Below are positions 16,722 to 50,243 of a DNA stretch of 50,243 nucleotides, in pieces. The DNA lies in contig CAYNDS010000004.1 of assembly GCA_964395885.1 (NCBI GenBank), forward strand, positions 1-50,243, in the 5' to 3' direction. This DNA is from an uncultured Solibacteraceae bacterium. Lineage in GTDB: Bacteria > Acidobacteriota > Terriglobia > Bryobacterales > Bryobacteraceae. Numbering within the stretch: the stretch's first letter is position 1; every line of letters starts with the position of its first letter. The notes under the pieces were generated by a model that did not search any database, was not told the DNA's origin, and saw only the letters and a list, made by a program, of their open reading frames with translations. The translations under genes were made by a program, and so were the position numbers.

Positions 16722-16751
16722 GTCGCGGAAACCTCTAGTATAGAGGGCGCA

Positions 16752-17759
<1,008 letters not shown>

Positions 17760-17771
17760 GGCGGCGCCGAG

Positions 17772-19796
17772 CTACAGTCCCAGCCGCGAAAAGACGCGCA
17801 GCAGGTCATCGGTGACAAACGGCTTCGCCTGGTAGGCGTTCATGCCCGCGGCCAGACACCGCTCCTCATCGCCGGGCATCACGCCTGCCGTCAGGGCAAT
17901 GATGGGGACGGGTGCGGCTCCGGTGACGGCTTCCCGCTGCCGGATGCGGCGCGTCGCCTCGTAGCCGTCCATCACCGGCATCTGACAGTCCATCAGGATC
18001 AGGTCGAAGGGTCCGTCGGCGACGGCGTCCACCGCCTGCCGGCCATCGCCCGCAACCGCCACCTCGTGCCCCAGGCGCGCCAGTTGCCGCATGACGATCC
18101 GCTGGTTGACCTCGTTGTCCTCTGCCAGCAGCACCCGATAGCGCCGCATGCGGTCTCCGCCGGGTGCCGACGCCGGAGGTGCCGCCGCCGCCGCATCCGC
18201 CAGCGGAAGCCGGACCACAAAGGCGGATCCGCGACCCACTTCGCTCGACACGGAAATCGTGCCGCCCATCCGGTCCGCCAGCTTCCGGCAGATCGCCAGA
18301 CCGAGACCGCTGCCGCCGAAGCGCCGCGTCGTCGAGGAGTCTGCCTGCCGAAACGGGTCAAAAATCGCCGCCTGTTTCTCCGGCGCAATCCCGACCCCCG
18401 TGTCCGTCACCACCAGGGCCACCCAGCCGTCCGCCTCGCGCCGCCGTTCCAGCGTCACGGTGCCGCGTTCGGTGAACTTCACCGCGTTCGACACCAGGTT
18501 GATCAGAATCTGCCGCAGCCGCGTCGCGTCGCCCAGCACCATGTCCGGAGCCCCCGGCGCCGTGCCATCCACCACCTGCAGTTCCCTGCCGTGCGCCATC
18601 GTGCGGCCGATATCCAGCCCATCCCGCAGCAACTGCGCCAGCGAGACCGGAACGGACTCCAACTCCAACTGCCCGTTCTGATACCGCGAGAAATCCAACA
18701 GGTCGTTCACCAGCGACAGCAGCATGCCGCCGGAGCGCCGGATGATCTCCACAAACTCCCGCTGCTCCGGGTCGACAACGGTGCGATCCAACTCATCGGC
18801 CCCGCCCAGGATGCCGATCAGCGGCGTTCGGATCTCGTGGCTCATCACGGCCAGAAACTCCGACTTCAGCCGCTGCGCCTCCTCGGCTTCCTCGCGCGAA
18901 CGAACCGCTTCCCGAAGCGTTGCCTCCCGTGCCTCACGCGCTTCGCGCTCCGCCGTCAGGTTGCGCTGCACGGCGACGTAATGCTCCACGCGTCCGGAAG
19001 CGCCCCGCACCGGCGCCACGCTCCACCCCACCACGTACGGTGAGCCGTCCTTGCGGTAGTTCACCGTCTCTCCTTCAAAGCGCCGCCCGCGCGTCAGATC
19101 CTCCCGCAGGCGGTCGAGCACTTCGCGCTCCGTGGCCGGACCCTGCAGCAATCGCGGAGACTGCCCCGCCACCTCCGCCGGTTCATAGCCCGTTAACCGG
19201 CGGAACGCCTGATTCGCATAGACGATCCGAGGGCCCGGCGCGTCCATCTCCGCGTCGGTGATCAGCACGCAATCCTGCGCGTCCTCCACTGCCTGCTCCA
19301 GCAGCGCCGCCCGCGCCTCACGCTCCTTGCGAACGTGGATGTCCTCGGTCACCATCGCCATCAGCACGCGCCCGTCGGCGTCCGGCGGCAGCAGGGAACC
19401 CGTGGTCTGCACCCACCGCGCCTCGCCGTTCGGACGCACATAGCGCTTCTCCAGCCGGAAAATCTCCGTCTCCTTGGCCCAGCACGAGGCCACCGCGTCA
19501 CGCACCCGCTCCTGATCGTCCGGATGCACGATTGCCAGCCGCGTGGTGTGGAGCAGGTCCTCGAGAACGCGGCCCGTAATCTCGCTATAAGCGCGGTTCG
19601 CGGCCACGATCACGCCCTCACGGTCGCTGATCGACAGCCCAACCGAACAGTGCTCAAAGAGCTGTCCGAACCGGTCCCACACGTTCTCTCTATCGGACTG
19701 CACACAGCCGGGATGAGGCAAGTTTGCCCTCGTCGGACCTCCTGGTAACGATCGGGTAGAAAGCCCAGAGGAAACAGGCGAGCAGACTCCATCCAA
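17772..19796 (-). CDS. Hybrid sensor histidine kinase (PAS-PAS-HisKA-HATPase-REC)
   Basis: It has two PAS-like segments, the H-box [13 protein letters not shown], an N box ([12 protein letters not shown]), a G box (DTGVGI…GSGLGLAI), and a C-terminal receiver ([10 protein letters not shown]…[13 protein letters not shown]). The start (TTG 19796 or GTG 19682) is uncertain. Confidence 0.85.
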
Positions 19797-19913
19797 TTCC
19801 TACGACGCACTCGGTCCCTTTCCGCATCCCGGTCCGCAACGGATTCCGGGACTCCGGTGCTTCGCCACGCCGGTCCAAGCCCGTCGGCTGCCGCCACGCG
19901 CCTCCGGCTTGAT

Positions 19914-21539
19914 ATGCTCTCCAACGTCGTGCGCCTCTCTTTCTCTGTTCTCCTCCTCACCGCGAGCCTTTCCGCCGCCGAGTTCAAGGATGTCGAATAC
20001 TCCAACGTCGGCCAGCGCGTCGCCATGGACATTGCCACGCCCGCCGGGGACGGACCGTTCCCCGCCGTCCTGCTGGTGCATGGCGGAGGCTTCCGCCGCG
20101 GCACGCGTGACAGCTATTGGCCCCTCGCGCAGCGCCTTGCCGAACGTGGCTACGTGGCAGCGACGGCCAGCTACCGCCTTGCCCCGCGCCACCAGTTTCC
20201 GGCCGCCGTCGAGGACGTCAAGGCCGCCGTGCGATTTCTCCGCGCTCGCGCAGCCCAGTACAAGATCGACCCGTCGCGCATCGGCGCCATGGGGGCCAGC
20301 GCCGGCGGACATCTGGTCCTGATGCTCGGCCTCACCGCCGGCATCGCCGAGTTCGAGGGCACCGGACCGAACCGCGATCAGTCCAGCGGCGTCACCTGCG
20401 TCGTCAACTACTTCGGACCCACCGACTTCACGCAGTCGTATTCCAAGAGCGTCGATGCCGCCGAGGTGCTGCCCTTGTGGCTGGGCGGCGATCTCGACCA
20501 CGCGCGTGTCTATCACCAGAAGGCCAGCCCGATCAACTGGGTGACGCCCGCCGCCGCGCCGACGCTGTCGATTCACGGCACCAGGGACACCTACGTCGCC
20601 TATGAGCACTCCGTCATGCTGACCGAGCGGATGCTGGCCGCCGGCGTCGACGCGGAACTGGAAACAATCTCCGGCGCCGGGCACGGCTTCAAGGGCGCCG
20701 ATGCGGAACGCGCCGAACAGCGCGCCTTCGCCTACTTTGACCGTCATCTGAAGCCCACCCCGTCCTCGCGCCGCCTGCTTCTTTCCGATCATGGTCCGCG
20801 CGGCGAGGTGGTGGCCGTGGAATGGCCGTCCGGCCGCGAGCTCTGGACGATTCCCAACCAGCGCGGCCACGACGTGCAGCCGCTGCCGAACGGCAATGTG
20901 CTGTTCACGGTCGGCCCCGCGCACAAGGTCGTCGAGGCGGATCCGAAGGGCAGGGAAGTGTGGTCGTACTCCGAGGGCCTCGCGCATCCGCTCGCCGCGC
21001 AGCGCCTGCCGAACGGCAATACGTTGATCGGGGATGCGAAGCTCGGCAAGGTGATCGAGGTAACGCCCGACAAGCGCGTCGCCTGGAAGTATGAGAGCGC
21101 GGACCTTGCCAACATGCGCATGCGGAACTCTCGCCGCACCGCCGCCGGCACCACGCTCATCGCCGTCGAGGCCGAGGCCAAGATCATCGAGGTCGATTCC
21201 GCCGGCAAGATCATCTGGCAGTGGCAGGCGCCGAACGGTGCCAACCGGCGCGCCTATCAGGCCCTGCGCCTGGACAACGGCAACACGCTCATCTCGCTGA
21301 ACGATCCGGGCGAGGTGGTGGAAGTCGATCGCGCGGGCGCCGTGGTGCGCTCGATGGCCGGCGCCAAGCGGGACCTGCAACTCGGTTGGGCCTCCGGCAT
21401 GGCCCTGCTGCCGGACGGTGGGCTGTTCGTCTCCGATTACACCGGCCGGCGCATCGTCGAACTCGACAAAGCAGGCAAACTGGTCAACGAATTGCGCACG
21501 AAGGACCGTACGGTGGCCTCGCTCGCGGTGCTGCCTTAA
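19914..21539 (+). CDS. Secreted alpha/beta-hydrolase (esterase, HGGG/GxSxG type) fused to a beta-propeller-like repeat domain
   Basis: It has a signal peptide (LSFSVLLLTASLSAAEF), HGGGF, and the nucleophile elbow GASAGG. The C-terminal half has repeated LPNGN(V/T)L / LDNGNTL blades. Confidence 0.8.
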   Translation: MLSNVVRLSFSVLLLTASLSAAEFKDVEYSNVGQRVAMDIATPAGDGPFPAVLLVHGGGFRRGTRDSYWPLAQRLAERGYVAATASYRLAPRHQFPAAVEDVKAAVRFLRARAAQYKIDPSRIGAMGASAGGHLVLMLGLTAGIAEFEGTGPNRDQSSGVTCVVNYFGPTDFTQSYSKSVDAAEVLPLWLGGDLDHARVYHQKASPINWVTPAAAPTLSIHGTRDTYVAYEHSVMLTERMLAAGVDAELETISGAGHGFKGADAERAEQRAFAYFDRHLKPTPSSRRLLLSDHGPRGEVVAVEWPSGRELWTIPNQRGHDVQPLPNGNVLFTVGPAHKVVEADPKGREVWSYSEGLAHPLAAQRLPNGNTLIGDAKLGKVIEVTPDKRVAWKYESADLANMRMRNSRRTAAGTTLIAVEAEAKIIEVDSAGKIIWQWQAPNGANRRAYQALRLDNGNTLISLNDPGEVVEVDRAGAVVRSMAGAKRDLQLGWASGMALLPDGGLFVSDYTGRRIVELDKAGKLVNELRTKDRTVASLAVLP

Positions 21540-27160: not shown

Positions 27161-27238
<78 letters not shown>

Positions 27239-28714: not shown

Positions 28715-29833
28715 CTACACGTCACCACGAGCACGCTCTATTGCCCTGCGTACAGTTTCGATCTCGGGGTGCACATAGCGCTTCGTTGTTGAGAAGTCGG
28801 CATGGCCAGCCAAGTACGCCAGCGTGTACGGATCCATGTGCGCGGCCCAGCGCGTGAGACACGTGTGTCGGAACGTGTACAGGCTGAACGGTGCGAGACC
28901 TGCCGTTCTGAGAACATTGCGATGCTGTTTACGAAGGGTCGACTTCTCGATATGCGCCGACCGCGTCGGTGCAGGGAAGACCCACTCGACTGACGCACCG
29001 TTCTTCCGCATCTCCAGGATGGAGGCGACCCGGTCGGTCATCGGCACTTGCCGCCGAGCGCTCGCCGTCTTGCCGGATGCAATATGGAGTGAACCTTCGT
29101 GGACGTTCTCCCATCGGAGCCGGAACAGTTCATCAGGTCTCAAGCCGCAATCCAGAAGGATGGTCACCACGTCCCGAAGCAGGAAAGGATCACGCCTCGT
29201 TGGCGGAGGCCCAGCTTGCAGTTGAGCGGTCGACTCGGTGGATCGCAACCCGGGCGTGTCGACACTTTGGGTAGCAAGTTTCTCGGCCGCAGCCAAGTAG
29301 CGGCACTCCTCGTCCCGCGAGAGCACGCGGCTTCGCGTGGCTTCGCCGGGTAGCATCTGGATGCGAATAGCGGGCTGGTCAAGAACGCCCCATTCCAGGG
29401 CCAATCGAAGCATTCTTCGCAGGACTTCCAACTCCCGGTTGATGCTACTGACCTGGAGCTGCGCCCCACGCCGCTTCGAGACGAAGTCCCGAACCTGGGC
29501 CTGCTTGATGTTGTCCATCGCCGAGGAAGCGATTGGGTCGAAAGACAGGAGGCTCTTCAAACCGTTGGCGTAGTACTCGAGTGTTTTGGGCTTGCTGGAG
29601 AAGCGGGAGAGCACGAATGGCAAAAATTCTCGCTCGGCGAAGGTTCTGAAGGTCGGAATCTCTTTTTTCTCGGTGATCCCAGCTTCGTTCTTGGCCAGGT
29701 TGGCTTTGTGCAGAGCTTCCATCTGCTCGGCGACCCGCTTGACGGGCTGCCGCGTTGATTGCCGAATCCGCTTGCCGTTCCAGACGAAGCAGTACCACCA
29801 GTTTTTGGAAGTTTTCTGTTTGTAGACAGCCAT
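28715..29833 (-). CDS. int: Tyrosine-type site-specific integrase (phage/ICE integrase family)
   Basis: It has the N-terminal SAM-like/arm region (KNWWYCFVWNGKRIRQST), a catalytic R (LLDCGLRPDELFRLRW), HxxR (FRHTCLTR), and the terminal …TKRYVHP Tyr motif. Confidence 0.9.
   Translation of the reverse strand: MAVYKQKTSKNWWYCFVWNGKRIRQSTRQPVKRVAEQMEALHKANLAKNEAGITEKKEIPTFRTFAEREFLPFVLSRFSSKPKTLEYYANGLKSLLSFDPIASSAMDNIKQAQVRDFVSKRRGAQLQVSSINRELEVLRRMLRLALEWGVLDQPAIRIQMLPGEATRSRVLSRDEECRYLAAAEKLATQSVDTPGLRSTESTAQLQAGPPPTRRDPFLLRDVVTILLDCGLRPDELFRLRWENVHEGSLHIASGKTASARRQVPMTDRVASILEMRKNGASVEWVFPAPTRSAHIEKSTLRKQHRNVLRTAGLAPFSLYTFRHTCLTRWAAHMDPYTLAYLAGHADFSTTKRYVHPEIETVRRAIERARGDV
28766..28862. repeat. 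Imperfect direct repeat, copy 2 (within the intact integrase 3' end)
   Basis: See the partner repeat at 27377-27475. Confidence 0.7.
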
Positions 29834-39042: not shown

Positions 39043-40071
39043 CTAGACGTGCTCGATCACGTACCGCCCGTCGCGGTAGTCGTGGACGAGTAGAACTTCG
39101 CGGACCTTTCGGCCCGCTGGCAAGGAGCTTTCCTCGTCCACGAAGACGACCAAGTCCACGGCGGCGGCGATTAAGCTTTGCTGTGGAGCGGTGGTTGCCT
39201 CCGCGACCAGGCTCTCCAATCGGATCAGCCCGCTGAGGGCGTCATTGGCGTGTATGGTGGCGATGCCACCGGGATGGCCCGTGTTCCAGGCCTTCAGTAG
39301 CGTGTGGGCTTCCGCGCCGCGAACTTCGCCTACTACGATGCGATGGGGTTTCAGGCGCATCGACGCCCGGAGGCAGTCGAGCATCGTCACTTTCCCAACG
39401 GCACGCAGGTCGACAAAGTTCTTCACGGCGCATTGCAGTTCAGTTGTGTCCTCGATTACAATCACGCGGTCAGACGGCGTCTCCTCGCTGAAGACATCAA
39501 GGATGGCGTTGACCAACGTGGTTTTCCCGCTGCCGGTGGAGCCGACGATCAGGATGTTCTTGCGGGCGCGCACCGCCGCCCGAATCACTTCGGCGTGCGA
39601 AAGGCCGCGGACGAGCAGTCCGAAGTCGTCCCGCCGCCGCCGTGCGTTGAGAGGGTCCTCGCCCCGCGTCAGGATGCCGCTTTGCTCATACTCGGCGAGT
39701 CGGAAGATGCGTTTCGGTCGGAGCCGGATGGCAAACACCGGCGATCTGACGACGGGAGCGGTGAGGCCTTCAAAACGGCTACCGTCGAGGGGCAGTTCCG
39801 TTTCGAGAATCGGGTTTTCGGCGTTGATGAAGCAGTCGCGAGCCGCCGCGATGGTTTGCATCGCCGTGAGCGCCTGCTGAGGCGGCAGCGTGTCCACGGC
39901 TTCGAACGGCTCTCCCATGCGCTTGATCCAAACGGAGCTATCGGGATTGAGTAAGATATCTTCCGCGCGAGGGTCTGCCAGTAGCTTGAGTATTCGGTCA
40001 CCAAGCTCGCGCCGTAACTTCACCTCCAATCTTTCTTTTTTCTCGAAATTCGCGATGTCCGCTACCGGCAT
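39043..40071 (-). CDS. trbB: Conjugal transfer ATPase TrbB (VirB11 family)
   Basis: It has Walker A (GSTGSGKTT), Walker B (VIVIEDTTEL), the His-box region (IVVGEVRGAEA…TGHPG), and is first in the trb operon. Confidence 0.9.
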   Translation of the reverse strand: MPVADIANFEKKERLEVKLRRELGDRILKLLADPRAEDILLNPDSSVWIKRMGEPFEAVDTLPPQQALTAMQTIAAARDCFINAENPILETELPLDGSRFEGLTAPVVRSPVFAIRLRPKRIFRLAEYEQSGILTRGEDPLNARRRRDDFGLLVRGLSHAEVIRAAVRARKNILIVGSTGSGKTTLVNAILDVFSEETPSDRVIVIEDTTELQCAVKNFVDLRAVGKVTMLDCLRASMRLKPHRIVVGEVRGAEAHTLLKAWNTGHPGGIATIHANDALSGLIRLESLVAEATTAPQQSLIAAAVDLVVFVDEESSLPAGRKVREVLLVHDYRDGRYVIEHV

Positions 40072-40207
40072 ATTGACCTTTTGAGTGGCTGTGATATTCT
40101 GCTTTCGTTAGTCAAGCTATCGAGCAGCCCATCTCTCCCCTTCGCGATCTATGGGCCTGTCCTAGCTACAACGGGACACCCGATTCGAACGAATCCTGGA
40201 GAGTGGT

Positions 40208-40801
40208 ATGGCTGTCGTGACGATCCCTTCGAACTTTGACGAGCTGCCGGAGCCAGTGCGCCGCAGCGTCGTACCGATCTGCCTCAACGACGTCGATGAC
40301 CGTGGTCTGGCGATCCCCCACGGTTGGATCGACGCCGTCCATCGCGTAGCGGAACCGCTGCGCCTTTTGGCCAAACGCCGCCTCGGCGACGTGTGGATGG
40401 TGTCGGAACTCACCGAGACCAGCGTTCACGCTTTGGCCAAGCGACACGGCGAGGACCTTGGCCGCCACCCGCACCGTCGTATCTATGCGCGTGCCCGTTT
40501 CGATGCGGAGGATCTGCGGCGAGTGGATTGGCGGAATCGGCGAGGAAAGGTCATCGCTCCGGGAACGCTCGACCACTTCGTCGATCCGCAGAACTATGAA
40601 TCTCTTTACATTCAGGAGCTTTCGATTCGGAAGGCGGAAGAGTTCCTGAAGGAGAACAAGCAGGAGGATCTCGTGGCGGCGCTCGACTGCATGCGCCGCG
40701 GCTTACAGTGGGAAAGCATCGGCGAAGAGGTTGATGTCAAATGGCCCAATCTCAAGCGGCGCTGGTCACGCTGGATGAGCAGATTTCGTGATCAAGTCTA
40801 G
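40208..40801 (+). CDS. Divergent sigma-70/ECF-like factor (tentative)
   Basis: The C-terminus (LVAALDCMRRGLQWESIGEEVDVKWPNLKRRWSRWMSRFRDQV) resembles a region 4.2 HTH. The central segment (SELTETSVHALAKRH…RRIYARARFDAEDLRR) resembles region 2. It is followed by a ZAS-type anti-sigma-like gene. A GGAGAG SD precedes it. Confidence 0.45.
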   Translation: MAVVTIPSNFDELPEPVRRSVVPICLNDVDDRGLAIPHGWIDAVHRVAEPLRLLAKRRLGDVWMVSELTETSVHALAKRHGEDLGRHPHRRIYARARFDAEDLRRVDWRNRRGKVIAPGTLDHFVDPQNYESLYIQELSIRKAEEFLKENKQEDLVAALDCMRRGLQWESIGEEVDVKWPNLKRRWSRWMSRFRDQV

Positions 40802-40827
40802 CCGGACATGGCATAATCGCTGGACGG

Positions 40828-41568
40828 ATGGCAGCGGACGACAGCCCGGAGCAGCGTTACAACCGGGCAATGCGGGCCGTGCAGGAGTCGATCCTCCGGG
40901 AGTTTCCTAACCCCGAGCGCAAGGGGTGTCCTGGCGACGCGGCGATTCGAGACCTGGTTCGGAACCGCTACAGTCACGGGGGCGGCGAGGTTTGGGAGCA
41001 CGTGACCCACTGCTCGCCCTGCTACCGCGAATACGTGAACTTGCTGGCGCTGGCGGAGCGGCCCAAGCGCCTTCCCCAGTTCGCGGCGATTGCAGCGGGC
41101 CTAGTGATCGTGTTCGCGATCGGCTTCTGGGCGCGTGGGTGGTGGGCCGGCCAGTCCCCCGTAGAGCAGCGACCTCCGCTTGTACAGAAGAGCCCAGAGC
41201 TGCCAAAGCAGCCACAAGTCCTCGCGGCGGTTCTGAACCTGCAAGATCTCTCGCCAACGCGCGGAGGTGATTCGGCTGCAGGAACGCTACAGCGGATTCC
41301 ACGCGCGGATGTGTCGCTGACCATCTATCTGCCGCGCGGAAGCGAGCCGGGCCGGTACTCGGTGGAGGTGCGGCGACGACCAGACTCGACCGAAGCGGTG
41401 GTTCGGAGTGAGGGTAGTGCTTCGATTCAGAACGGATTGACGATTCTGGTCGTGCGGTGCGACCTGAGCAGCGTGCCTCCCGGGAGGTACGTAGTTGCGA
41501 CACGCGGACCGGGAGAGAGTTGGAGACCCTACTCGGTCGCCATTGAGGCGGTCTCCCGTGCGAACTGA
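40828..41568 (+). CDS. Zinc-finger (HxxxCxxC) anti-sigma-factor-like membrane protein
   Basis: It has the HVTHCSPC motif at ~aa 60, a single TM (FAAIAAGLVIVFAIGFWARGWW), and a ~140-aa extracytoplasmic beta-rich domain. Confidence 0.55.
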   Translation: MAADDSPEQRYNRAMRAVQESILREFPNPERKGCPGDAAIRDLVRNRYSHGGGEVWEHVTHCSPCYREYVNLLALAERPKRLPQFAAIAAGLVIVFAIGFWARGWWAGQSPVEQRPPLVQKSPELPKQPQVLAAVLNLQDLSPTRGGDSAAGTLQRIPRADVSLTIYLPRGSEPGRYSVEVRRRPDSTEAVVRSEGSASIQNGLTILVVRCDLSSVPPGRYVVATRGPGESWRPYSVAIEAVSRAN

Positions 41569-41604
41569 TAGCATTCGCGACTACATTTAGCCTAGTTGCG
41601 TCTT

Positions 41605-41624
41605 AAGCCCGGCAACACGGGCTT
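41605..41624 (+). terminator. Hairpin after the anti-sigma gene (weak terminator candidate, no U-tract)
   Basis: AAGCCCG-gcaaca-CGGGCTT lies 37 nt after the stop at 41568. Confidence 0.3.
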
Positions 41625-41806
41625 CAAGGACATGTAAACGCCTGATTTCTCTCGGTTAGCTGTCATCATGGCGAACGCTCTTGCGAGCATGACGGATCAT
41701 CGTTCGCGGTCGGTTCCATCGATACAGCTGTGCTGCTGAGCGAAACTCGGCAGAAAAGTTGGATCGAGCGTAGTGTGTAGCGCGACACACCACAGTACAC
41801 TGAAGT

Positions 41807-44800
41807 GTGATCGAACATCCCGGCGCACTAATCAGAAGAGAAATCCTTCCCGCGATCTCCGTATCCGAAGCGGCCCGTGTGCTGGGAATAGGACGGCCGG
41901 CGCTCTCCAGCCTCCTCAATGGAAGAGCTGCACTTTCGTCCGAGATGGCAGCAAGGCTGGAAAGGGCATTTGGGGCTGATGCCAAAAAACTCTTGAAGTT
42001 ACAGGCCGATTACGACCAAAGCAAACGGCGCCATCGAATTGCCGCTTTGGCGATCACACCCTATGTGCCGCCATTCCTCAAGATCACTGCGGATCAGATT
42101 AGCCGATGGGCTACCACCATTACAGCTCGCTCTACGTTCCCCGTACTTCTCCGGAGGCTTGTGAATTCGACCGGGCGCTCTGTTACGTTCGTTGATTTTC
42201 CTGGATACGACATGGCGGAGAGGCCTGGCTGGGACGGGAGAGTCGAGTGCACGGCCCCGACACAATGGTTACCCTGTGGCGTCTCGTGCTGGGAGCTAGG
42301 GTGCAGCTCTGACCCCGGGAGGAAGGCCCGTAGCGATTACGAGAAGCGGACTAGGGAGGTTCCTCCCGGTGAAAGGCGCAAGGCTCACTTCGTCTTCGCA
42401 ACGCCACAGATCTGGAGAGACAAACAGAGGTGGGTGGACGAGATGCAAGCATCAGGCGAGTGGCGCTCTGTGAGAGCCTATGACGCCAATGATCTGGAGC
42501 ACTGGCTTGAGCAGTCTCTCCCAGCTCAGAGGTGGCTTGCCGAGCAGCTAGACATCCCACAGGATGGCGTCTATTCCCTCGAGGATCGGTGGCGTGACTT
42601 TGCTCTGCAAAGTACTCCGCCCTTGACACATCGGCTCTTCGACTCCGCCGTTCTTCGCTTTCGGTCTCTGGTCTTGGATTGGATATCCAGTCCGGATCCA
42701 CAAAAACTACTTGTAGCTGCCGACTCGAGAATTGAAGCACTAGCGTTCCTCTTCTGCCTATTCGAGCAAGAAGATTTCCACCAGTGCAGAGACCGAATTC
42801 TTGTCTTTTCCTCTGGTCCAGCACTGAAGAGGCTGACAACGCCTGAGCCGCCGTTCATCCCTGTGGTTTTCACAGACGAAGCGGAGCGTGCCCTATCCAA
42901 TGAGTACAACGGAAAACACGCAGTTATAGTACGGCACAAGCTTGCACCGTATTGCGAGCCAGCGATCACTCTTGACGTGCTTGACAACGAAGGGTTTCGG
43001 AAGGGGCTGGAAGCAATGGGGATAACGGACCATCTTGAAATTGACAAACTAGGCCGTGAGTCCGGCTATTCCCCCACGATCCTCCGTCGGCGCCTCTCTA
43101 CCGTCCCGGCAATCCAAACGCCTACCTGGGCGAAGGATGCAGAAACAGCACGCCGACTGATTCCGATGATGCTCGCTGGAGCCTGGAACGTTGAGCTTCA
43201 GGGTGACCGTGAGGCTATCGAGTCTCTGAGCCAGCAATCGGCCGACCAAATCGAAGCGACGGTTGCCGAGTTCCTGCAGCTGGAAGACTCACCGATCTGG
43301 CGATCCGGCTATTCTCGCGGCGTTGCGTCGAGGCGTGACGCTCTCTTCGCAGTGGCACCTTACCTTACAAGGAACCATATCCAAACGTTCACTTCGATCG
43401 CATACTCAGTCCTGGCCGAAGCTGATCCCACCTTGGAGCTGTCAGATGACGAGAAACCGTTCGCGGTGCTTTACAACAAGTCTCGTCTTCATTCTGATTC
43501 CCTCCGACGAGGATTATGCGTGAGCCTAGCGCTCTTGCACATTCACGGAGGAGACGTCCTGCAGCGACAGACAGGCTATGACCCTCGCCGGGACGTCGAA
43601 TCGCTTATCCGCCGCCTTCTGACGCCGCTCACGCCAGACCTGTTGTACTCACAGCAGGACCTTCTACCGCTTTACGCGGAAGCGGCTCCCGAGACGCTAC
43701 TGGCAATAATCGAAGATGACCTTGGATCTGTGGCTCCAGCCACTTACTCGCTAATCTGCCGAGGGAGCTCAGGAGTCTTCGGAAGCTGTCCTCGGAGCGG
43801 TCTTCTCTGGGCCCTAGAGGTACTTGCCTGGGATCCACTTCTCTTCTCACGGGTGTCCCTTATCCTTGCCCAGCTCGCTACGCTGCCGCTTCTGGACAAC
43901 TGGAGCAATACAGCGTTCAATAGCCTCGCAGCTGTGTTCAGGTTCTGGATGCCACAGACGACCGCAGACGTGAGCGCTCGGATTAAAGCCCTAGAAGTTG
44001 TTGTTCACCGATTCCCCGTTATTGGCTGGAAGCTGTGCATTGCGCAGCTAGCATGTTTTCTTCAGACCGGTACCTACAGCAGCCGTCCGAAGTGGCGACA
44101 GCTTTCTAAGGGCGCTGGTCACCCAATATCCAGTACTCATGAACGGGATGTGTTCCGGCGGAAGGCGCTGGACCTTGCTCTCGGCTGGGCGACACATGAT
44201 GAACACACGTTGGGCGACTTGGTGGCTACACTCAATGGTCTTTCGGAGGCTGACCAGACAGCCATATGGGACCAGATCGACAGGTGGGCCATGGAAGAAA
44301 AGGACGACAAGCGAAAGGCAGCACTCCGGGCGCAGATCCGACTCTTAACAGTTCGAATGTCGCGGGAACAGGATTCGATTGAGTCCAAAAGTCGGGCGCG
44401 ATCTGCATACGAAGCACTGGCACCGACAGATCCATCGATTGGTCATGCATGGCTCTTCGAGAATCACTGGTTAGCCTACTCCTACCAGGAACTGCAGGAA
44501 GGCCCAATTGAGCACTTGGAACGCGACGCGAAGGTCGAATCTGCAAGGCGAGCCGCCCTGTCCGAGATCTGGCAAATGAATGGTGCTGTAGGAGTCAAGT
44601 CGCTCGTAGAGACTGCCAACTCACCATTCACCGTTGGGTCAACCTTGGCGTGTTTAAAGAATGCCTTAGACCTCGAGGCGCTTCTGCTACAGCTGTTGGA
44701 CGAAAAGGACCCGGTGAAGGCCTCCAACATCGACGAGGCGATTCGGGGGCTTCTCGCGCGATTAAATCCACAGGAGCGCCTTCCGTTGATCGATGGCCTG

Positions 44801-45844
44801 ATACATCGCTCACCGACTGACGCTATTCGTCGGATTCTCAGAAGCTCGCCGTTTGGACGGGAAACGTGGAAGCGTGTTGCGAGCCGTGGTGCCGCGGTAG
44901 AGCAGCAATACTGGCGCGAGATCCACCCAGGAAGACTGGGAGATGACCGTGCAGAGCTGAATGACGCAGTCGACTGCCTGTTGGCCGCTCGAAGGCCCAG
45001 GGCGGCTTTCTACTGTGTCGAGTTCGCTCTAGAACATGTCGAGACTTCTCGGTTGCGACGTATCGTTTACGAGGTGCGAACGGTGAACGAGGAAGAGCCC
45101 GGAACATATCTGGTGGAGGCATACCATCTTTCTCAGGCTCTCGACATACTGCAAACCCGCGAAGACATTAGTGAGGAGGAGATGGCGAGTCTCGAGTTTC
45201 TGCATGTGGATGCTTTAGAACATCAGAAGCACGGCATCCCAAATCTCGAGAAGCAGTTGTCAAGGTCGCCTGCGCTGTTTGTTCGAGCCTTGGCGCTTGC
45301 GTTCGGTCGCGAAGACGGTAAGACCGATCCTCCCGAGTGGGGGCAAGTAGGTGAGGCTAGCGGCCTCCTGGCACACCGCCTCCTTCGGAATGTAAAGCGG
45401 ATTCCAGGTGCGAGCGATCGCGACAGTTGCATCAATAAGGACGCTCTGCGTACATGGGTTAGCGAATCTCGATCACTCGCTGCAGCTCATGGCAGAGCAG
45501 ACCGCGGCGATGAGTATATCGGGATCATCCTGTCGGCCTCCCCCACTGGCGAGGATGGAATCTGGCCATGTGTGGAGGTCCGCGAGGTTATTGAGGAAGC
45601 ACACAGCTACCACCTTGGCCGCGGAGTCCTTGTTGGTGTTCAGAGCTCATTCGGCGTTTATATCCGCCACGAGGGGGGGACACGAGAGAGACAGCTTGCT
45701 TCAAGGTATCAGCACTGGGCTGATGACTTGCTGGCCGAATACCCCCACACTTCCGAGGTTGTGCGCCGAATATCGCGGTCCTACGAGGACCAGGCGCGCA
45801 GAGAAGAGTTATCAGTGACGGCAAGCAGACGGCTTCGAAGTTGA
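41807..45844 (+). CDS. 1345-aa protein: N-terminal HigA/Xre-type HTH fused to a very large uncharacterised, mostly alpha-helical region
   Basis: Residues 1-75 (MIEHPGALIRREILPAISVSEAARVLGIGRPALSSLLNGRAALSSEMAARLERAFGADAKKLLKLQADYD) match the HigA antidote HTH pattern. The remainder has no P-loop or other motif I can name. The GTG start lies one codon after an in-frame stop, so it is fixed. Confidence 0.8.
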   Translation: MIEHPGALIRREILPAISVSEAARVLGIGRPALSSLLNGRAALSSEMAARLERAFGADAKKLLKLQADYDQSKRRHRIAALAITPYVPPFLKITADQISRWATTITARSTFPVLLRRLVNSTGRSVTFVDFPGYDMAERPGWDGRVECTAPTQWLPCGVSCWELGCSSDPGRKARSDYEKRTREVPPGERRKAHFVFATPQIWRDKQRWVDEMQASGEWRSVRAYDANDLEHWLEQSLPAQRWLAEQLDIPQDGVYSLEDRWRDFALQSTPPLTHRLFDSAVLRFRSLVLDWISSPDPQKLLVAADSRIEALAFLFCLFEQEDFHQCRDRILVFSSGPALKRLTTPEPPFIPVVFTDEAERALSNEYNGKHAVIVRHKLAPYCEPAITLDVLDNEGFRKGLEAMGITDHLEIDKLGRESGYSPTILRRRLSTVPAIQTPTWAKDAETARRLIPMMLAGAWNVELQGDREAIESLSQQSADQIEATVAEFLQLEDSPIWRSGYSRGVASRRDALFAVAPYLTRNHIQTFTSIAYSVLAEADPTLELSDDEKPFAVLYNKSRLHSDSLRRGLCVSLALLHIHGGDVLQRQTGYDPRRDVESLIRRLLTPLTPDLLYSQQDLLPLYAEAAPETLLAIIEDDLGSVAPATYSLICRGSSGVFGSCPRSGLLWALEVLAWDPLLFSRVSLILAQLATLPLLDNWSNTAFNSLAAVFRFWMPQTTADVSARIKALEVVVHRFPVIGWKLCIAQLACFLQTGTYSSRPKWRQLSKGAGHPISSTHERDVFRRKALDLALGWATHDEHTLGDLVATLNGLSEADQTAIWDQIDRWAMEEKDDKRKAALRAQIRLLTVRMSREQDSIESKSRARSAYEALAPTDPSIGHAWLFENHWLAYSYQELQEGPIEHLERDAKVESARRAALSEIWQMNGAVGVKSLVETANSPFTVGSTLACLKNALDLEALLLQLLDEKDPVKASNIDEAIRGLLARLNPQERLPLIDGLIHRSPTDAIRRILRSSPFGRETWKRVASRGAAVEQQYWREIHPGRLGDDRAELNDAVDCLLAARRPRAAFYCVEFALEHVETSRLRRIVYEVRTVNEEEPGTYLVEAYHLSQALDILQTREDISEEEMASLEFLHVDALEHQKHGIPNLEKQLSRSPALFVRALALAFGREDGKTDPPEWGQVGEASGLLAHRLLRNVKRIPGASDRDSCINKDALRTWVSESRSLAAAHGRADRGDEYIGIILSASPTGEDGIWPCVEVREVIEEAHSYHLGRGVLVGVQSSFGVYIRHEGGTRERQLASRYQHWADDLLAEYPHTSEVVRRISRSYEDQARREELSVTASRRLRS

Positions 45845-46011
45845 GCTTCTTATGTTGCCAAGGCGAGGAGGTGAGACTGCGCGACGTCAAGCCTGACTAG
45901 TGGGCTCCACTCCAGATGCTCGTAGGTCAGAGGATGCTCCTGCCGCTCGGCGAACTCAAACCACCAGTCGCGGTAGACGCATGAGCGTGCGGATTGTCGG
46001 CCCACAATCTT

Positions 46012-47259
46012 TCAGCGATGGACGTGAGCTGAGGCTTGTTCTAGTTGATCATCAATAGCCCTTGCCAAATGTTCAGGAATCTGATCCACACGTTCATTCG
46101 GTTCGACGCCCTTTCCCTCGACCGGTTGCCCCTCCGACGTGAACCAGGCCGCGATCGGAATCCGCAGGCGATAGCCGGACGGCAGTGTGAAATTCGCGCC
46201 GCCCAGCACCTCTCCCGCGGATGGTTCACCGATGATCGTTGCGAGACCATTCGCCTTCGCAAAAGTAGTCACCATCTCCGCCGCGCTGTGCGAGAACCGG
46301 TTCTGCAATACAGAAATGCGGCTGTGGAATGGCTGCTGGCCGAGCCCCTCGGTCACCAAGCGCATGGACCGGTCTCGGTTCAGCAGTAGAAATCGGAGCG
46401 CCAAAGGTACCGCGCCCAGCTTGCTGTCGGGAACTTTGTCGATGCTGGGGAGGGAGTCCGGAGAAGCGGTGGCGCGCTTTCGTGTCAGGGTGTAGCCCAC
46501 CAAGCGCTTGTCCGGACAGAACAAGCTCATCAGCCGAAGCGAGCCTAGGCCGCCACCTACGTTTCCTCGAAGATCGACGACCAGGCGCTGGCAACCATGG
46601 CGGTTCAAGTCTTGTAAGGCCTGTCCGAGTGCTTTGACGAAGTCCAGGCCAACGGCCCCCGGAAATCGCGCGACCCGGAGGTAGCCAACGTCTTTTGAGA
46701 GCATCTTGTGACTGATTGCGCGCGGCTGAATGTTCGTTTGGCCTTTGATCGGGAGTCCGCCGGCCTGGATGCTGACAAGGCGGGTGGTTCCGTTCGGAAA
46801 TAGCCGGGTCGTCAATTCGTGAACCTTTCCCGCTCCCCAGAGCGGCGGTTTGTCGGTGGCGAGCGGCTTGCCATCTACGGCAACCAGCACCTCGCCCGGT
46901 TTCAGACCCGCACGGGCGGCAATACCTTCGTCGAGCACATCCCAGAACAACCATTCGAACCCTCGCGGACTCTCAATCCGGCGCAGCGTCGCGTGAAGTG
47001 CATGCGCGGTGGGCACGCCTTGGCCACTAGGAGCGATGAGGGCCGTATGGCTGGTCCCGAGCACGCCGAGGAGGTTCGCCACGCCAAGTTCGAAGTCCTG
47101 ATCGGTCTTTGTCGCGGTCAGGCCCGCCGACTGGTCGTCCACAAGCGCCGCCCAATTGTCGTAGGATCGCGTCGGATTGCGCGGATCGATGTGTCTCTCG
47201 ATGACGAGCGCCCGGACCGCGCCGAGGATGGCGGCTTTCTCTTCATTGCTTAGGCTCAT
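46012..47259 (-). CDS. S41-family peptidase with PDZ domain; no signal peptide, so cytoplasmic
   Basis: It has a PDZ segment (GLKPGEVLVAVDGKPL), VVDLRGNVGGG, and the nucleophile motif FSHSAAEM (Ser codon at 46285-46287). A strong AGGAGGGG SD precedes it and its start overlaps the CHAT gene stop by 17 nt. Confidence 0.85.
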   Translation of the reverse strand: MSLSNEEKAAILGAVRALVIERHIDPRNPTRSYDNWAALVDDQSAGLTATKTDQDFELGVANLLGVLGTSHTALIAPSGQGVPTAHALHATLRRIESPRGFEWLFWDVLDEGIAARAGLKPGEVLVAVDGKPLATDKPPLWGAGKVHELTTRLFPNGTTRLVSIQAGGLPIKGQTNIQPRAISHKMLSKDVGYLRVARFPGAVGLDFVKALGQALQDLNRHGCQRLVVDLRGNVGGGLGSLRLMSLFCPDKRLVGYTLTRKRATASPDSLPSIDKVPDSKLGAVPLALRFLLLNRDRSMRLVTEGLGQQPFHSRISVLQNRFSHSAAEMVTTFAKANGLATIIGEPSAGEVLGGANFTLPSGYRLRIPIAAWFTSEGQPVEGKGVEPNERVDQIPEHLARAIDDQLEQASAHVHR

Positions 47260-49840
47260 GACCCCTCCTGCTTGTCAAGGGACGGCTCCCCTCGCCTTCG
47301 AGGATGAAGCCTGCCCAGTAGTACGGCTCCAGCTTTGGCCCGAACTTCCGCATCAACTCCCGCTTTGCCAAGGCGAGCGCCTCCGATGGCGGCCGTCCCG
47401 CGCCGAGGTTTCGGTAGAACGAACGCATCAGGGCCAACGTGAACGTATCGTCGACCGGCCACAGCGTCGACACCACCGCCTGCGCACCGGCGAGCAGGAA
47501 CGCTCGGGAGAGGTTCGCAATTCCCTCTTGGCCCTGCAACCGGCCGACTCCGGTGTCACATGCCGACAGGACTACCAGGCGAGCAGTCGTTCGCCACTGG
47601 CCGATCTCGGCTACGTCCAGGATGCCGTCGTTGCCGTTTTTCGGATCGGGTTGGAGCAGAACAGCGGCGCGGTCCGGCGAGACCTCGTCAGCGTGGCCAT
47701 GGGCGGCAATGTGAATGATCGAGAAATCTCTGGCGAGCGCTTCTTGCAGCACTCGTTCGGTTGCTTCAGCGCCCACAATGGCTCGGCTTCGTTGCGGACG
47801 ATAGAACTGCGCAGCCGCTACGGCCTCATCCCGCGACGCCGGTATGTTGCCCCAGCCCTCCACAGTCATCCCGCGCGCGCTGGCCAGCTTCGCCGTGTTC
47901 GCACTGTAAGGAACGCCGCCGAGAGCAAACACGCCGCCAATGACCGGCAGCCGCTTCTCGGATCGCAGCAAGTGCAAGATGCTGGCCGACGGGATGAACG
48001 AGACATCGCGAGTTTCCGCCAGCAGCCGTCCACGACTGTCTTGGAGGGTGTCGAACGGAAGGCTGTGCAGCACGCCATCCCGCGCAATCACGACGTGTCG
48101 GTAAGTGGGGGCAGAGGCCTCTGCGGGCAAGAGTATCTTCGATAGCCGCCGAGTACTCGTCGAACGCTTTGCCCTAATGCCCGAGCGGAGTTGCTCGATC
48201 TGCTCCGCGATTTCGGCGGCCTCGTCGACTCGGTCCAGGCGGACCGCCGCTCGAGTGATCGTGAACCGGTACAGGTCCCTTGCCGAAACGACGAAGGCTA
48301 ACAGCAATTCCTCAGGTTCCAAGGTTTGTTGAACGTCCGCTAACGCGACCGGTGTCGAAGCGATTCGGCTACGCGCATCCGGTGGGGCGATCCAGCGTCG
48401 CTGATCTTCGTAGAAGATCGCGTCCTGGATCGAGTGGCGCTCCGCCCGTGTTCTGGCCGTGACAAGCGCGAGGCGTAATCTGCTGACGCGCCGGTCGATG
48501 CTCGGATCGGAGTCCTGCTGCTTCGCGCCTGCCGCGAGCAAGTCGCGCATGGCTCGCGCTCGGATCTGCTCCATCACGGAGAAGGCGCGGCCCGAATCCC
48601 GTAGTTGACCGGCAAGCAAGGCGAAGTGCTCAGTATGCAACTCGCCGAATTGGCTGACCAGCGAAGTGCGCACCGCGAAGTTGGGGTTGCTGTCGATCAA
48701 GCCGGAGATGATCGCTTCACCACGGTCGTAGGTGGCATCGGCGGCTTGCCAATCTCGGCGCGCTGATTGCAACTGGGCCAGGGTGAGCAAGCGACGGGGC
48801 ACGAGGTAGACCTCCGAAGCGTCCGAGACACTGTCCAGCCCTTGTGAGATTTGCGCCTCTGCTTCGTCCAGCCGGTTACTTTTGCGATACAGGTCCGCAA
48901 GGTCAAAGCGGGCGGCCAGGGCAAGTCGAGGGAAGCCGCCTTCCTGCGCGATGTTCACGGCGAGTCGCAGTCGCTCCTCCCCTTGATCCACCCGGCCCGT
49001 CGCGGCACTCACGTCCGCCAAGGTGATCAGCGTCTGAGCCTCCTTAATCTTTCTCTTGAGCCGACGGGCCTGCGAGAGGATGTCAGCTCCGATCGCTTCC
49101 GCGGCGTCGAACTGGCGAGTCTTGCGGAAGGCCGCCAACCGAGCGGTCGGCAAAGGAAAGTAGTAGCCCATTTCCGGTGCAGCCGCGATCGCTTTTTCCG
49201 CCTTGGCAAGGTACGGGAAAGCCTGCTCGGGCATTTTCCCCAACGCGAGCGAATTGGCAATCGCCGAGAGGAATCGCACGAGTGCAGGAACGTCGCGGGA
49301 GCGTTCCGCCGTCACCAACGCCCCGGCGACGAGTTGACGGGCAGTGACAACATCGCCGAGGACGAACGAGGCTAGGCCGATTTCGCCCGAAGCTCGACTC
49401 GCTAAGCGATGATCGCCGGCGTCTGTAGCCAGTTTGCGCACTTCTTCCCAATCGCGCTTCATCGTGGCGGCATCGATTTCGCCGTGTACGTCGCCTCTGG
49501 CCGCTAGGCAGAAAACGCGTGCCGTCACAGCTTCCGAAGGTAGACCGTCGAGGACCGCGGTGAGCTGGTCGACAACATCGGATAGCTGTCGCCGCTCCAT
49601 GGTGGCGCGCAGCAGCCCGCACTTTGCGGTTGCAACGTCACCGGGCTTCGCCTCCGATGGCGACGCTTTCAGGGCTGACTGGAAGCCTACCTCTGCATCA
49701 GCCCAGTTGTAGGCCGCTGCCGACGTTATCGCCTGATCCAACGAGCTGCAATCGCCCGCCGAGAGCATCGCCATCGACGCCAGCGCCATCCCGATTAGCC
49801 GTCCGCAATCCCTTGCCGCTGGGGAGGTTTTCGTGGACAT
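47243..49840 (-). CDS. TPR-repeat + CHAT (caspase-like Cys protease) domain protein
   Basis: The C-terminal CHAT domain has the His/Cys dyad IIHIAAHGH (His codon 47699-47701) and VVLSACDTG (Cys codon 47558-47560). About 500 aa of TPR-like repeats lie upstream. I chose ATG 49838-49840, which gives a signal-like N-terminus (MSTKTSPAARDCGRLIGMALASMAMLSAG); ATG 49789 is an alternative. ORF codons above 49840 are the antisense shadow of the repB-like gene. Confidence 0.8.
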   Translation of the reverse strand: MSTKTSPAARDCGRLIGMALASMAMLSAGDCSSLDQAITSAAAYNWADAEVGFQSALKASPSEAKPGDVATAKCGLLRATMERRQLSDVVDQLTAVLDGLPSEAVTARVFCLAARGDVHGEIDAATMKRDWEEVRKLATDAGDHRLASRASGEIGLASFVLGDVVTARQLVAGALVTAERSRDVPALVRFLSAIANSLALGKMPEQAFPYLAKAEKAIAAAPEMGYYFPLPTARLAAFRKTRQFDAAEAIGADILSQARRLKRKIKEAQTLITLADVSAATGRVDQGEERLRLAVNIAQEGGFPRLALAARFDLADLYRKSNRLDEAEAQISQGLDSVSDASEVYLVPRRLLTLAQLQSARRDWQAADATYDRGEAIISGLIDSNPNFAVRTSLVSQFGELHTEHFALLAGQLRDSGRAFSVMEQIRARAMRDLLAAGAKQQDSDPSIDRRVSRLRLALVTARTRAERHSIQDAIFYEDQRRWIAPPDARSRIASTPVALADVQQTLEPEELLLAFVVSARDLYRFTITRAAVRLDRVDEAAEIAEQIEQLRSGIRAKRSTSTRRLSKILLPAEASAPTYRHVVIARDGVLHSLPFDTLQDSRGRLLAETRDVSFIPSASILHLLRSEKRLPVIGGVFALGGVPYSANTAKLASARGMTVEGWGNIPASRDEAVAAAQFYRPQRSRAIVGAEATERVLQEALARDFSIIHIAAHGHADEVSPDRAAVLLQPDPKNGNDGILDVAEIGQWRTTARLVVLSACDTGVGRLQGQEGIANLSRAFLLAGAQAVVSTLWPVDDTFTLALMRSFYRNLGAGRPPSEALALAKRELMRKFGPKLEPYYWAGFILEGEGSRPLTSRRGHEPKQ

Positions 49841-50243
49841 GGCACAGGCGGGATTGCGAAGGACGATATCGGCTGTCGAGCGGCAGATTGGAGCAATGGG
49901 CTGCGCTTCATACGAAGTCGGCCTACTGTCGTCGCGGGAGAACCAAGCAGCAGCGATGTTGCTCCGTACCTGGACTGCCGAAGAGGTCCTACGAGCGGTG
50001 CCCTGGATGCGCCACCAAAACGCGGCTGGACGCCATGTGTACATACGGCCCGCTGGTGAGCACGCATTGACCTTGGTCGACGATTTGAGTGTGCCGGCCT
50101 TGACTGCGTGCACGAAGTCGGGCGTCGACTTCGCGGCGATTATCGAGACGTCCAAGGACAACTTCCAGGCCTGGCTCAAGCACGACCGAACGCTCTCGAA
50201 GGACCTCAGCAGTGCAGTTGCCAAGGTGGTGGCGCGAGAACTC
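49839..50243 (+). CDS. RepB-primase-domain protein (ICE/plasmid replication-mobilisation type), 5' part only; open at the window end
   Basis: The frame is open from ATG 49839 (or GTG 49833) to the edge and is preceded by GGGGAGG. It translates to MAQAGLRRTISAVERQIGAMGCASYEVGLL…WTAEEVLRAVPWMRHQNAAGRHVYIRPAGEHALTLVDDLSVPAL…AAIIETSKDNFQAWLKH. This is the hallmark pattern of RepB'-type primase domains. Confidence 0.7.
   Translation, partial: MAQAGLRRTISAVERQIGAMGCASYEVGLLSSRENQAAAMLLRTWTAEEVLRAVPWMRHQNAAGRHVYIRPAGEHALTLVDDLSVPALTACTKSGVDFAAIIETSKDNFQAWLKHDRTLSKDLSSAVAKVVAREL

Follow-up and report, generated by a model that had tools for sequence, protein, structure and literature searches.

The genes described here most closely resemble DdvS/DdvA of Myxococcus xanthus, in which a sigma factor of the extracytoplasmic function (ECF) type is paired with a single-pass anti-sigma factor that has a CHCC zinc bundle and a periplasmic TPR-CHAT region (PMC11506125). 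DdvS/DdvA controls a CBASS/CRISPR-Cas island (PMC11506125). Its authors proposed CHAT as the site-1 protease, with RseP and then cytosolic proteases acting after it, but were unable to settle whether CHAT has this role; they reported fused DdvA-like proteins from Myxococcota and one Comamonas only (PMC11506125). We analysed contig CAYNDS010000004.1 of an uncultured Solibacteraceae bacterium, a complete contig of 50,243 bp that is called the window throughout, and that carries part of an integrative conjugative element (ICE). Five genes, here named A to E, lie between trbB and a repB-like gene of this element (Table 1). We favour the reading, at a probability of roughly 0.55, that they form two independent units: A, B, E and D as a protease-gated sigma/anti-sigma switch, and C as an autonomous single-gene module.

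All five open reading frames (ORFs) of the initial annotation are present where it placed them, and its gene calls were right: A is sigma-like (with no Pfam sigma match of its own), B is a zinc-binding anti-sigma (ZAS) protein, C has a helix-turn-helix (HTH) domain, and E and D are a convergent CHAT-S41 pair. The same annotation suggested that the five genes are one unit, a sensor plus a proteolytic cascade, and named linkage across genomes as the test; the test refuted this. For C, we collected 82 non-redundant loci with 10-kb flanks, and homologues of A, B, D or E were found within 10 kb in 0/82. Conversely, C was found in 0/80 of the loci recovered by a metagenome scan with an alignment of the CHAT protein.

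The other four genes stay together. S41 lies directly 3' of CHAT in every CHAT locus with room for it (79/79), and in the window the two genes share 17 nt, at the start of D and the end of E. A homologue of B is present in 53 of the 80 CHAT loci, and a homologue of A was detected in 50 of those 53; B is missing from only three CHAT loci with adequate flanks, the remaining 24 being too short to tell. The 53 loci comprise 31 with a contiguous A-B-CHAT-S41 operon, in which the junctions are short or overlapping, 20 with the convergent arrangement seen in the window, and two with another arrangement. B sits directly 3' of an A homologue in the window, in L086, L087, L089, L091 and L093 and in 50/80 of the metagenome loci. 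A, B, D and E are a conserved, linked four-gene set, and the block is not one unit. The other suggestion made at the outset, two adjacent small systems, came nearer the truth, with the four-gene set recurring as linked genes in dozens of loci and C apart from it.

Related elements illustrate the range of arrangements. A sister ICE (L086) runs trbL-trbE-trbC-trbB, then homologues of A (45% identical) and B (46%), a gene of 187 aa, RepB and finally CHAT-S41. In L087 a sigma-like gene of 207 aa, B (30%), CHAT and S41 form a tight operon read in one direction; its surroundings are helicase and nuclease genes, and transfer genes are absent within 10 kb. In L089/L090 and L091, A and B are followed by three to four unrelated genes and a convergent S41-CHAT pair, and these sets adjoin RepB/ParA/TraM and a relaxase. 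The closest relative of the window element is L112 (A 74%, B 70%, TrbB 68%, RepB 55%).

B is predicted to be a single-pass membrane ZAS anti-sigma factor. Its ligands C34, H58, C62 and C65 are invariant in six homologues and give a complete CHCC zinc-binding motif, in the ZAS arrangement of H-x3-C-x2-C plus an upstream ligand within an N-terminal cytoplasmic domain. After a transmembrane segment (about residues 84-106), the C-terminal part of some 140 aa is a conserved domain predicted to lie outside the cytoplasm. B has no Pfam match, and a PDB profile search returned nothing meaningful.

E is predicted from its sequence to be an exported (periplasmic) TPR-CHAT caspase-like protease. The His/Cys dyad (H715, C762) is invariant in 12 orthologues, as in a catalytic CHAT domain, and the N termini of the orthologues are short and basic and then hydrophobic, resembling Sec-type signal peptides. 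About ten close relatives of E are present in the databases. When the family profile was compared with the PDB, the sole CHAT chain matched was 8ROT, which is DdvA (E=1.5e-6). A search for CHAT orthologues on sequenced plasmids yielded partial CHAT-domain matches only.

D combines an S41 domain with a PDZ domain, and S70 and H71, located ahead of the PDZ domain, are invariant in the orthologues. The nucleophile Ser, in an 'HSAAE' motif, is also retained. It does not have the Ser/Lys dyad and export signal of the Ctp/Prc type. No signal peptide was found in five full-length orthologues (a sixth, from L091, is N-terminally truncated), so D is predicted to be cytoplasmic. Its best PDB relatives are IRBP (the best), CtpA, CtpB, tricorn and CPAF, and from the invariant Ser70-His71 a tricorn/CPAF-like Ser/His(/Glu) arrangement is possible.

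Comparison with DdvS/DdvA shows both shared and distinct features. In each case an ECF-type sigma adjoins an anti-sigma that crosses the membrane once and has its CHCC zinc domain in the cytoplasm, a TPR-CHAT region with a His/Cys dyad is placed on the periplasmic side, and the set is physically associated with defence genes. Unlike in DdvA, however, the TPR-CHAT region here is a separate exported protein, E, and B (246 aa) lacks CHAT and has a small outer domain of its own. B therefore falls outside the fused DdvA family, and the resemblance is functional and modular. The set also differs in that a cytoplasmic PDZ-S41 protease is always co-encoded, in that the sigma factor is far more divergent than DdvS (no Pfam match), and in its location on conjugative elements of soil bacteria, probably Acidobacteriota. 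By this comparison the four genes would be a split, and apparently undescribed, version of a DdvS/DdvA-type switch.

The set was also compared with other protease-controlled sigma pathways. In Craspase (Csx29/Csx30/RpoE) and CalpL/CalpT/CalpS, as proposed here, a signal-activated protease removes a sigma inhibitor and frees an ECF sigma, and Csx29 of the type III-E Craspase is a TPR-CHAT protein like E. E scores against the NCBIfam Csx29 model with E=3e-6 but only 26 bits, the cut-off being 300. Unlike in both systems, there is no CRISPR-Cas or cyclic-oligonucleotide sensor in the window, the CHAT protein is predicted to be exported rather than cytoplasmic, and the inhibitor is a classical ZAS membrane anti-sigma; nor, in contrast to Craspase, is there Cas7-11/gRAMP or Csx30/Csx31 in the window or in related loci. 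Regulated proteolysis of anti-sigma factors is also known from RseA, with DegS, RseP and ClpXP, and S41 proteases of the Prc and CtpB types take part in sigma pathways. Like RseA, B is a single-pass anti-sigma for which we propose an outer site-1 cut and then removal of the cytoplasmic stub. Unlike in the RseA pathway, the site-1 candidate is a caspase-like CHAT protein, the S41 protease has a predicted cytoplasmic location and no canonical Lys, and no site-2 protease is encoded in the block.

The initial annotation regarded the block as a candidate undescribed module. This holds to the extent that PADLOC-DB v2 recognised no system among the block proteins: A, B and D had no match, E matched only BovA, via its CHAT domain (1e-9), and C matched PD-Lambda-4_A at 2e-3. 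It does not hold to the extent that DdvS/DdvA is a published analogue (PMC11506125) and that C is Avs-like in predicted structure.

A is probably a divergent ECF-like sigma factor, as judged from its predicted structure and from weak matches among its relatives. The AlphaFold2 model (predicted local distance difference test score, pLDDT, 80) consists of two helical bundles, one sigma2-like and one sigma4-like, joined by a disordered linker. The top Foldseek matches in the PDB were nearly all ECF sigmas, about 30 of them (M. tuberculosis SigL and SigH, RpoE-NepR, AlgU, SigW, SigK and E. coli sigma-E); the best had E=8e-3, which is marginal, at a probability of 0.98, with template modelling (TM) scores that were low, about 0.3. 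Among 18 relatives of A, weak matches were seen to Sigma70_r4_2 in five and to Sigma70_ECF in two. The family is small, with 226 representatives among 1.84 billion proteins. A match of A to EF-P was weak and was rejected as spurious.

Several further observations concern A and its upstream region. The -35 hexamer of the promoter-like site ahead of A (40073-40078) begins 2 nt past the trbB start codon (40069-40071, minus strand), and transcription of A-B and of the trb operon would start within one compact divergent region, a layout shared by L086. Near-consensus TTGACA/TATAAT sites precede the A homologues of L086, L089 and L091, and a weaker one (TTGAAA) precedes that of L093. We considered a shared ECF-type promoter for the set and rejected it, as A has a sigma-70-type site and the motif found upstream of CHAT (see below) is restricted to one subclade. 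The N-terminal extension of A (residues 1-37; 40208-40320) is strongly conserved (MAVVTIP...VVPIC, with P7 and C25 invariant) and is modelled as a small beta-hairpin preceding the sigma2-like bundle; we know of no such extension in ordinary ECF sigmas. A second A-like paralogue of 207 aa, 33-35% identical to A of the window, is encoded in L089 (7104-7727, minus strand) and L091 (5184-5807, minus strand), where it stands back-to-back with A-B and heads a RepB/ParA/TraM operon. These elements therefore carry two sigma-like subfamilies, one of them without an adjacent anti-sigma.

By analogy with DdvS/DdvA, the four genes could work as follows. B would keep sigma A at the membrane via its cytoplasmic CHCC zinc domain. 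E would serve as the periplasmic sensor of a trigger and as the site-1 protease, clipping the extracytoplasmic domain of B, and a host site-2 protease would then release the cytoplasmic stub of B. PDZ-bearing proteases read C-termini, and D may read the new C-terminus and degrade the stub, freeing A for transcription; D would be a natural candidate for the 'cytosolic protease' step of a DdvA-type pathway. Candidates for the regulon are the CHAT-S41 operon, the transfer genes of the element and neighbouring cargo. If this scheme is true, the set extends the DdvS/DdvA principle, a caspase-like protease gating an ECF sigma, beyond Myxococcota, and mobile elements carry a version of it that is split and has a second protease of its own. 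Since CHAT is here a separate protein and the anti-sigma substrate is small, a site-1 role of CHAT should be easier to test directly.

The position of C is variable in content across the family. Among the 20 convergent loci, the distance from the end of B to the end of S41 ranges from 32 bp to 7.8 kb; it is 4.4 kb in the window, where it holds C, and only 833 bp in L112. The 68 ORFs called in the 19 non-empty slots are mutually unrelated and face in mixed orientations. Their matches include Lamassu LmuA/LmuB/LmuC, PD-Lambda-2_B, a type IV methyl-directed restriction enzyme, mad2, the PADLOC candidates PDC-M45, PDC-S19 and PDC-M19, HigB, a Cap4 nuclease domain, a ResIII helicase, methyltransferases and transposases. 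The slot is a cargo hotspot rich in defence genes, bracketed by A-B and CHAT-S41. The block had been described as ICE cargo, which is accurate for C alone; A-B and CHAT-S41, which bracket the slot, are semi-conserved genes of the element family. We found no direct or inverted repeats flanking C that could be insertion scars, and DNA identity between L112 and the window outside coding regions was too low for mapping of the boundaries. A bracketed slot of this kind is a newly recognised cargo hotspot that would be useful for defence-gene mining in soil bacteria.

C has an HTH_3 domain at residues 17-57 (Pfam), and its residues 4-75 score 59.6 bits against the HigA model TIGR02607, above the curated cut-off of 47.7. 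PDB profile matches to HigA structures were at 1e-5 to 1e-9, and the rest of C had no sequence match in Pfam or in the PDB profile search. The databases contain more than 1500 relatives, about 1357 aa in length and mostly annotated as 'HigA family antidote' or 'HigA family addiction module antitoxin'. In a scan of one genome per species, relatives were present in at least 340 species, from Acidobacteriota, Proteobacteria, Firmicutes, Chloroflexota, Planctomycetota, Cyanobacteria, Nitrospirota and others. In the public annotation of C itself (P0001, 1299 aa), the start is set 46 codons past the GTG at 41807, a choice that removes most of the HigA-type HTH (41807-41944 in the window). Homologues align from residues 2-4 of the longer ORF, which we therefore regard as correct.

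The AlphaFold model of C (residues 81-1280, mean pLDDT 85) begins with an alpha/beta domain, which is followed by another that is Rossmann-like, then by a helical/beta-hairpin region that is winged-helix-like, and last by a long alpha-solenoid. The top Foldseek match in the PDB was Avs4 bound to phage portal (8dgf_B; E=5e-6, TM 0.18), and AVAST5 was also listed. PD-Lambda-4_A, which is Avs8, was weakly matched by 12 of 22 members of the C family. C resembles Avs4 (8DGF) and Avs8 in its size (about 1350 aa) and in a predicted order of parts that runs from an N-terminal effector-like domain through an alpha/beta core with a winged helix to a long helical sensor. It differs from them in the lack of a Walker A motif and in an extra N-terminal HigA-type HTH, and its Avs-like part has no significant sequence match to Avs or in Pfam or PADLOC. 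After the first strand of the central domain, the family has a short loop, 'GDSKxE' ('ADSRIE' in the window protein), and it keeps a Walker-B-like 'VVFTDE' (D359/E360) and an 'IIVRPR' strand. In the first alpha/beta domain, D130, D143, E163 and K173 are invariant, and the order helix-strand-strand-strand-helix-strand together with the acidic residues is compatible with a PD-(D/E)xK nuclease. The predicted build of C would then comprise a DNA-binding head of the HigA type, a domain that may be nuclease-like, a degenerate core resembling a nucleoside triphosphatase and a helical sensor. On the model, C is a candidate for a P-loop-less, Avs-like sensor-effector, and not a member of STAND/Avs.

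De novo clustering of neighbouring ORFs in the 82 loci, carried out in search of a conserved partner for C, gave none. The immediate neighbours are a mixture of the sort met in defence islands, among them SoFic, type I specificity and methylase subunits, Type ISP, GmrSD, Abi_C, CapP, MADS components and transposases. DUF4172-Fic, the known single-gene system SoFic, occurs near C in approximately 7-11 loci, among close relatives only, and 4 of 120 flanking ORFs are this gene in the immediately adjoining position. It is the acidobacterial C homologues that are divergently paired with this gene (L003 8609-9727, L004 8724-9845 and L009 8703-9926, all on the minus strand; PADLOC SoFic, E down to 4e-74), and the pairing is absent outside the clade. 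Full-length C homologues are also found on plasmids of cultured bacteria, such as pS19502 of Shewanella baltica OS195 (WP_012197948.1), again as a single gene, and other cultured carriers belong to Pandoraea, Azospirillum and Mesorhizobium. C is most likely an autonomous single-gene module and a candidate anti-phage or anti-plasmid protein. Its family, spread over many phyla and labelled 'HigA antitoxin', nevertheless resembles an immune sensor that has no nucleotide-binding loop, and it can be tested because cultured carriers exist.

Several of our results weigh against the reading that we favour, both in its switch and in its account of C. In addition to the marginal fold matches described above, A had no sigma match in Pfam or NCBIfam, and with hhalign the sigma4 HTH alone aligned with E. 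coli RpoE, at 24% probability; evidence from sequence that A is a sigma factor was sought by Pfam, NCBIfam, PDB profile and hhalign, and all of it was weak. The promoter of A is of the sigma-70 type and not an autoregulated ECF type. In D, the position of the CtpA Lys (GKG motif) aligns with a Glu. The best PDB relative, IRBP, is not known to be an active protease, and with the canonical Lys missing as well it is conceivable that D could be inactive. E and D have different predicted compartments, so that their tight, translational coupling in one operon is not explained by direct interaction. Read-through control of cargo by the flanking operons is unlikely, since slot genes face both ways. 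For C, no conserved Walker A motif (GxxxxGK[ST]) was present in 22 family members, the N-terminal alpha/beta domain had no PDB-profile or Pfam match when searched as an 11-sequence sub-alignment, most Foldseek matches were generic HEAT-type solenoids with low TM-scores, and the defence-island context is guilt by association.

The set may also regulate the element itself rather than defence, given its frequent adjacency to transfer and replication genes. Under this alternative, the four genes work as proposed but are a housekeeping regulator that passes an envelope or cell-contact cue to transfer and replication genes, and C alone is conflict cargo. A and trbB are divergent in the window and in L086, L093 and L112. 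In L089 and L091, A adjoins RepB/ParA/TraM, and its paralogue is the first gene of the RepB operon. Eight loci of the operon type have TrbE/TrbI homologues 2-5 kb downstream of S41, and the absence of PADLOC matches for A, B and D fits as well. However, the L087 operon has its helicase and nuclease surroundings and no transfer genes nearby, and of the 41 loci that span 12 kb or more, only 11 had detectable transfer or maintenance genes, a count subject to the limited sensitivity of tblastn. Furthermore, the sole characterised relative, DdvS/DdvA, controls a defence island (PMC11506125), and the two gene pairs bracket a defence hotspot. We take this alternative seriously while doubting it, and from its gene context a role of the protease-gated switch in defence is plausible.

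A-B and CHAT-S41 could instead be two separate two-gene systems, with CHAT-S41 acting on a substrate of its own such as a secreted effector or maturation system. Each pair does occur without the other: L088 has RepB next to CHAT-S41 with no A-B within 10 kb, three well-covered metagenome loci likewise have CHAT-S41 without A-B, and in L093 trbB, A and B are present while CHAT is absent from the surrounding 7.5 kb. In the window and in 20 other loci the pairs are separate convergent transcription units. In one subclade only, CHAT has a conserved promoter-like motif of its own, GAGAAACT-N(17-19)-T(C/T)TA(A/G)TC, located about 80-260 nt upstream (L130, L132, L135, L139, L140, L142, L143, L147-L150, L152, L164 and L169). 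It occurs once per locus, at the CHAT-S41 operon only, and is absent upstream of A and from the window; it resembles an E. coli sigma-E-type promoter (-35 GAAACT, -10 TCTAA). Against two separate systems stand the 31 contiguous operons, the presence of both pairs in 53 of 56 informative loci, and the union of a ZAS anti-sigma and a TPR-CHAT region in one polypeptide in DdvA. We consider such a separation unlikely.

For C, the alternative is a toxin-antitoxin-type addiction or regulatory protein, in which a HigA antitoxin is fused to a large toxin or partner domain and stabilises the element. The HigA score of residues 4-75, which exceeds the cut-off, and the public HigA annotation are consistent with this, as are the homologues on conjugative plasmids. 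No HigB/RelE-type gene is present upstream of C in the window, however, and no HigB-like gene or conserved, recurrent small partner accompanies C in the 82 loci. Most homologues are chromosomal and lie in restriction and defence neighbourhoods, and the Avs4-like overall build is typical of sensor-effector proteins. An addiction role therefore appears improbable, slightly more so than the separation of the two pairs. That all five genes are one defence system with C as its DNA-binding sensor, for which their adjacency in this one window and the common strand of A, B and C could be cited, has hardly any chance of being right in view of the reciprocal absence of C and the other genes from each other's loci, the unrelated genes or empty slots that sister elements have in place of C, and the different GC content of C.

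The reading of two independent units also allows a more ambitious version, on which we would not bet. In it, A-B and CHAT-S41 would be a portable, inducible 'socket' for defence genes: a periplasmic caspase-like sensor of phage or envelope attack, a two-compartment protease relay and a private sigma factor would switch on whatever cargo the slot holds, here the P-loop-less, Avs-like C as a member of a new family of single-gene immune sensors.

Table 1. Positions of the five genes and of adjoining features in the window.
Feature	Position	Strand	Basis and remarks
trbB (VirB11-type ATPase)	39043-40071	-	Pfam T2SSE 7e-35; last trb operon gene, divergent from A
Promoter-like site, sigma-70-type, TTGACC-16-TATTCT with upstream TG	40073-40100	+	Promoter scan; ahead of gene A
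Gene A, 197 aa, putative divergent ECF-like sigma	40208-40801	+	ORF; predicted structure
Gene B, 246 aa, predicted membrane ZAS anti-sigma	40828-41568	+	ORF; ZAS motif and transmembrane segment
Gene C, 1345 aa, HTH-bearing giant protein	41807-45844	+	ORF; HTH_3 (Pfam), HigA model
Gene D, 415 aa, predicted PDZ-S41 serine protease	46012-47259	-	Pfam Peptidase_S41 8e-29, PDZ_6 1e-6
Gene E, about 848-866 aa, predicted TPR-CHAT protease	47243-49843	-	Pfam CHAT PF12770 4e-60 and TPR
RepB_primase gene, 5' part, cut by window end	49842-50243	+	tblastn; divergent from E

Metabolic genes fill the window up to a tRNA-Pro at 27161-27238. Past it, on the minus strand, come a tyrosine integrase and then trbI, trbG, trbF, trbL, trbE, trbC and trbB, and it is this series together with the tRNA and the integrase that identifies the element as an ICE, the far end of which is beyond the contig. 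The tRNA-Pro(CGG) gene is the apparent integration site, with the integrase (28715-29833, minus strand) about 1.5 kb off. Directly past the tRNA, GC content changes from about 0.66 to 0.57. The block had been thought to have the lowest GC of the window, which is correct for the region of C (0.56-0.57 at 42-46 kb) and not for CHAT-S41 (0.60-0.64, like the ICE backbone); the stretch at 27-29 kb is as low as that over C.

The raw ORF of E extends to 50224. From homologues and from the divergent repB gene, its start is likely to be at about 49843 or 49789. The RepB_primase of the window is 44-48% identical to the RepB_primase proteins of L086, L088 and L089 (tblastn). L088 also encodes an ECF sigma of the canonical kind (Sigma70_ECF) and, after it, a Ser/Thr kinase-TPR protein of 929 aa (16682-20027, plus strand). 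This pair lies about 4 kb downstream of the CHAT-S41 genes, which in L088 are without A-B, and is another kind of sigma-control pair on the same element.

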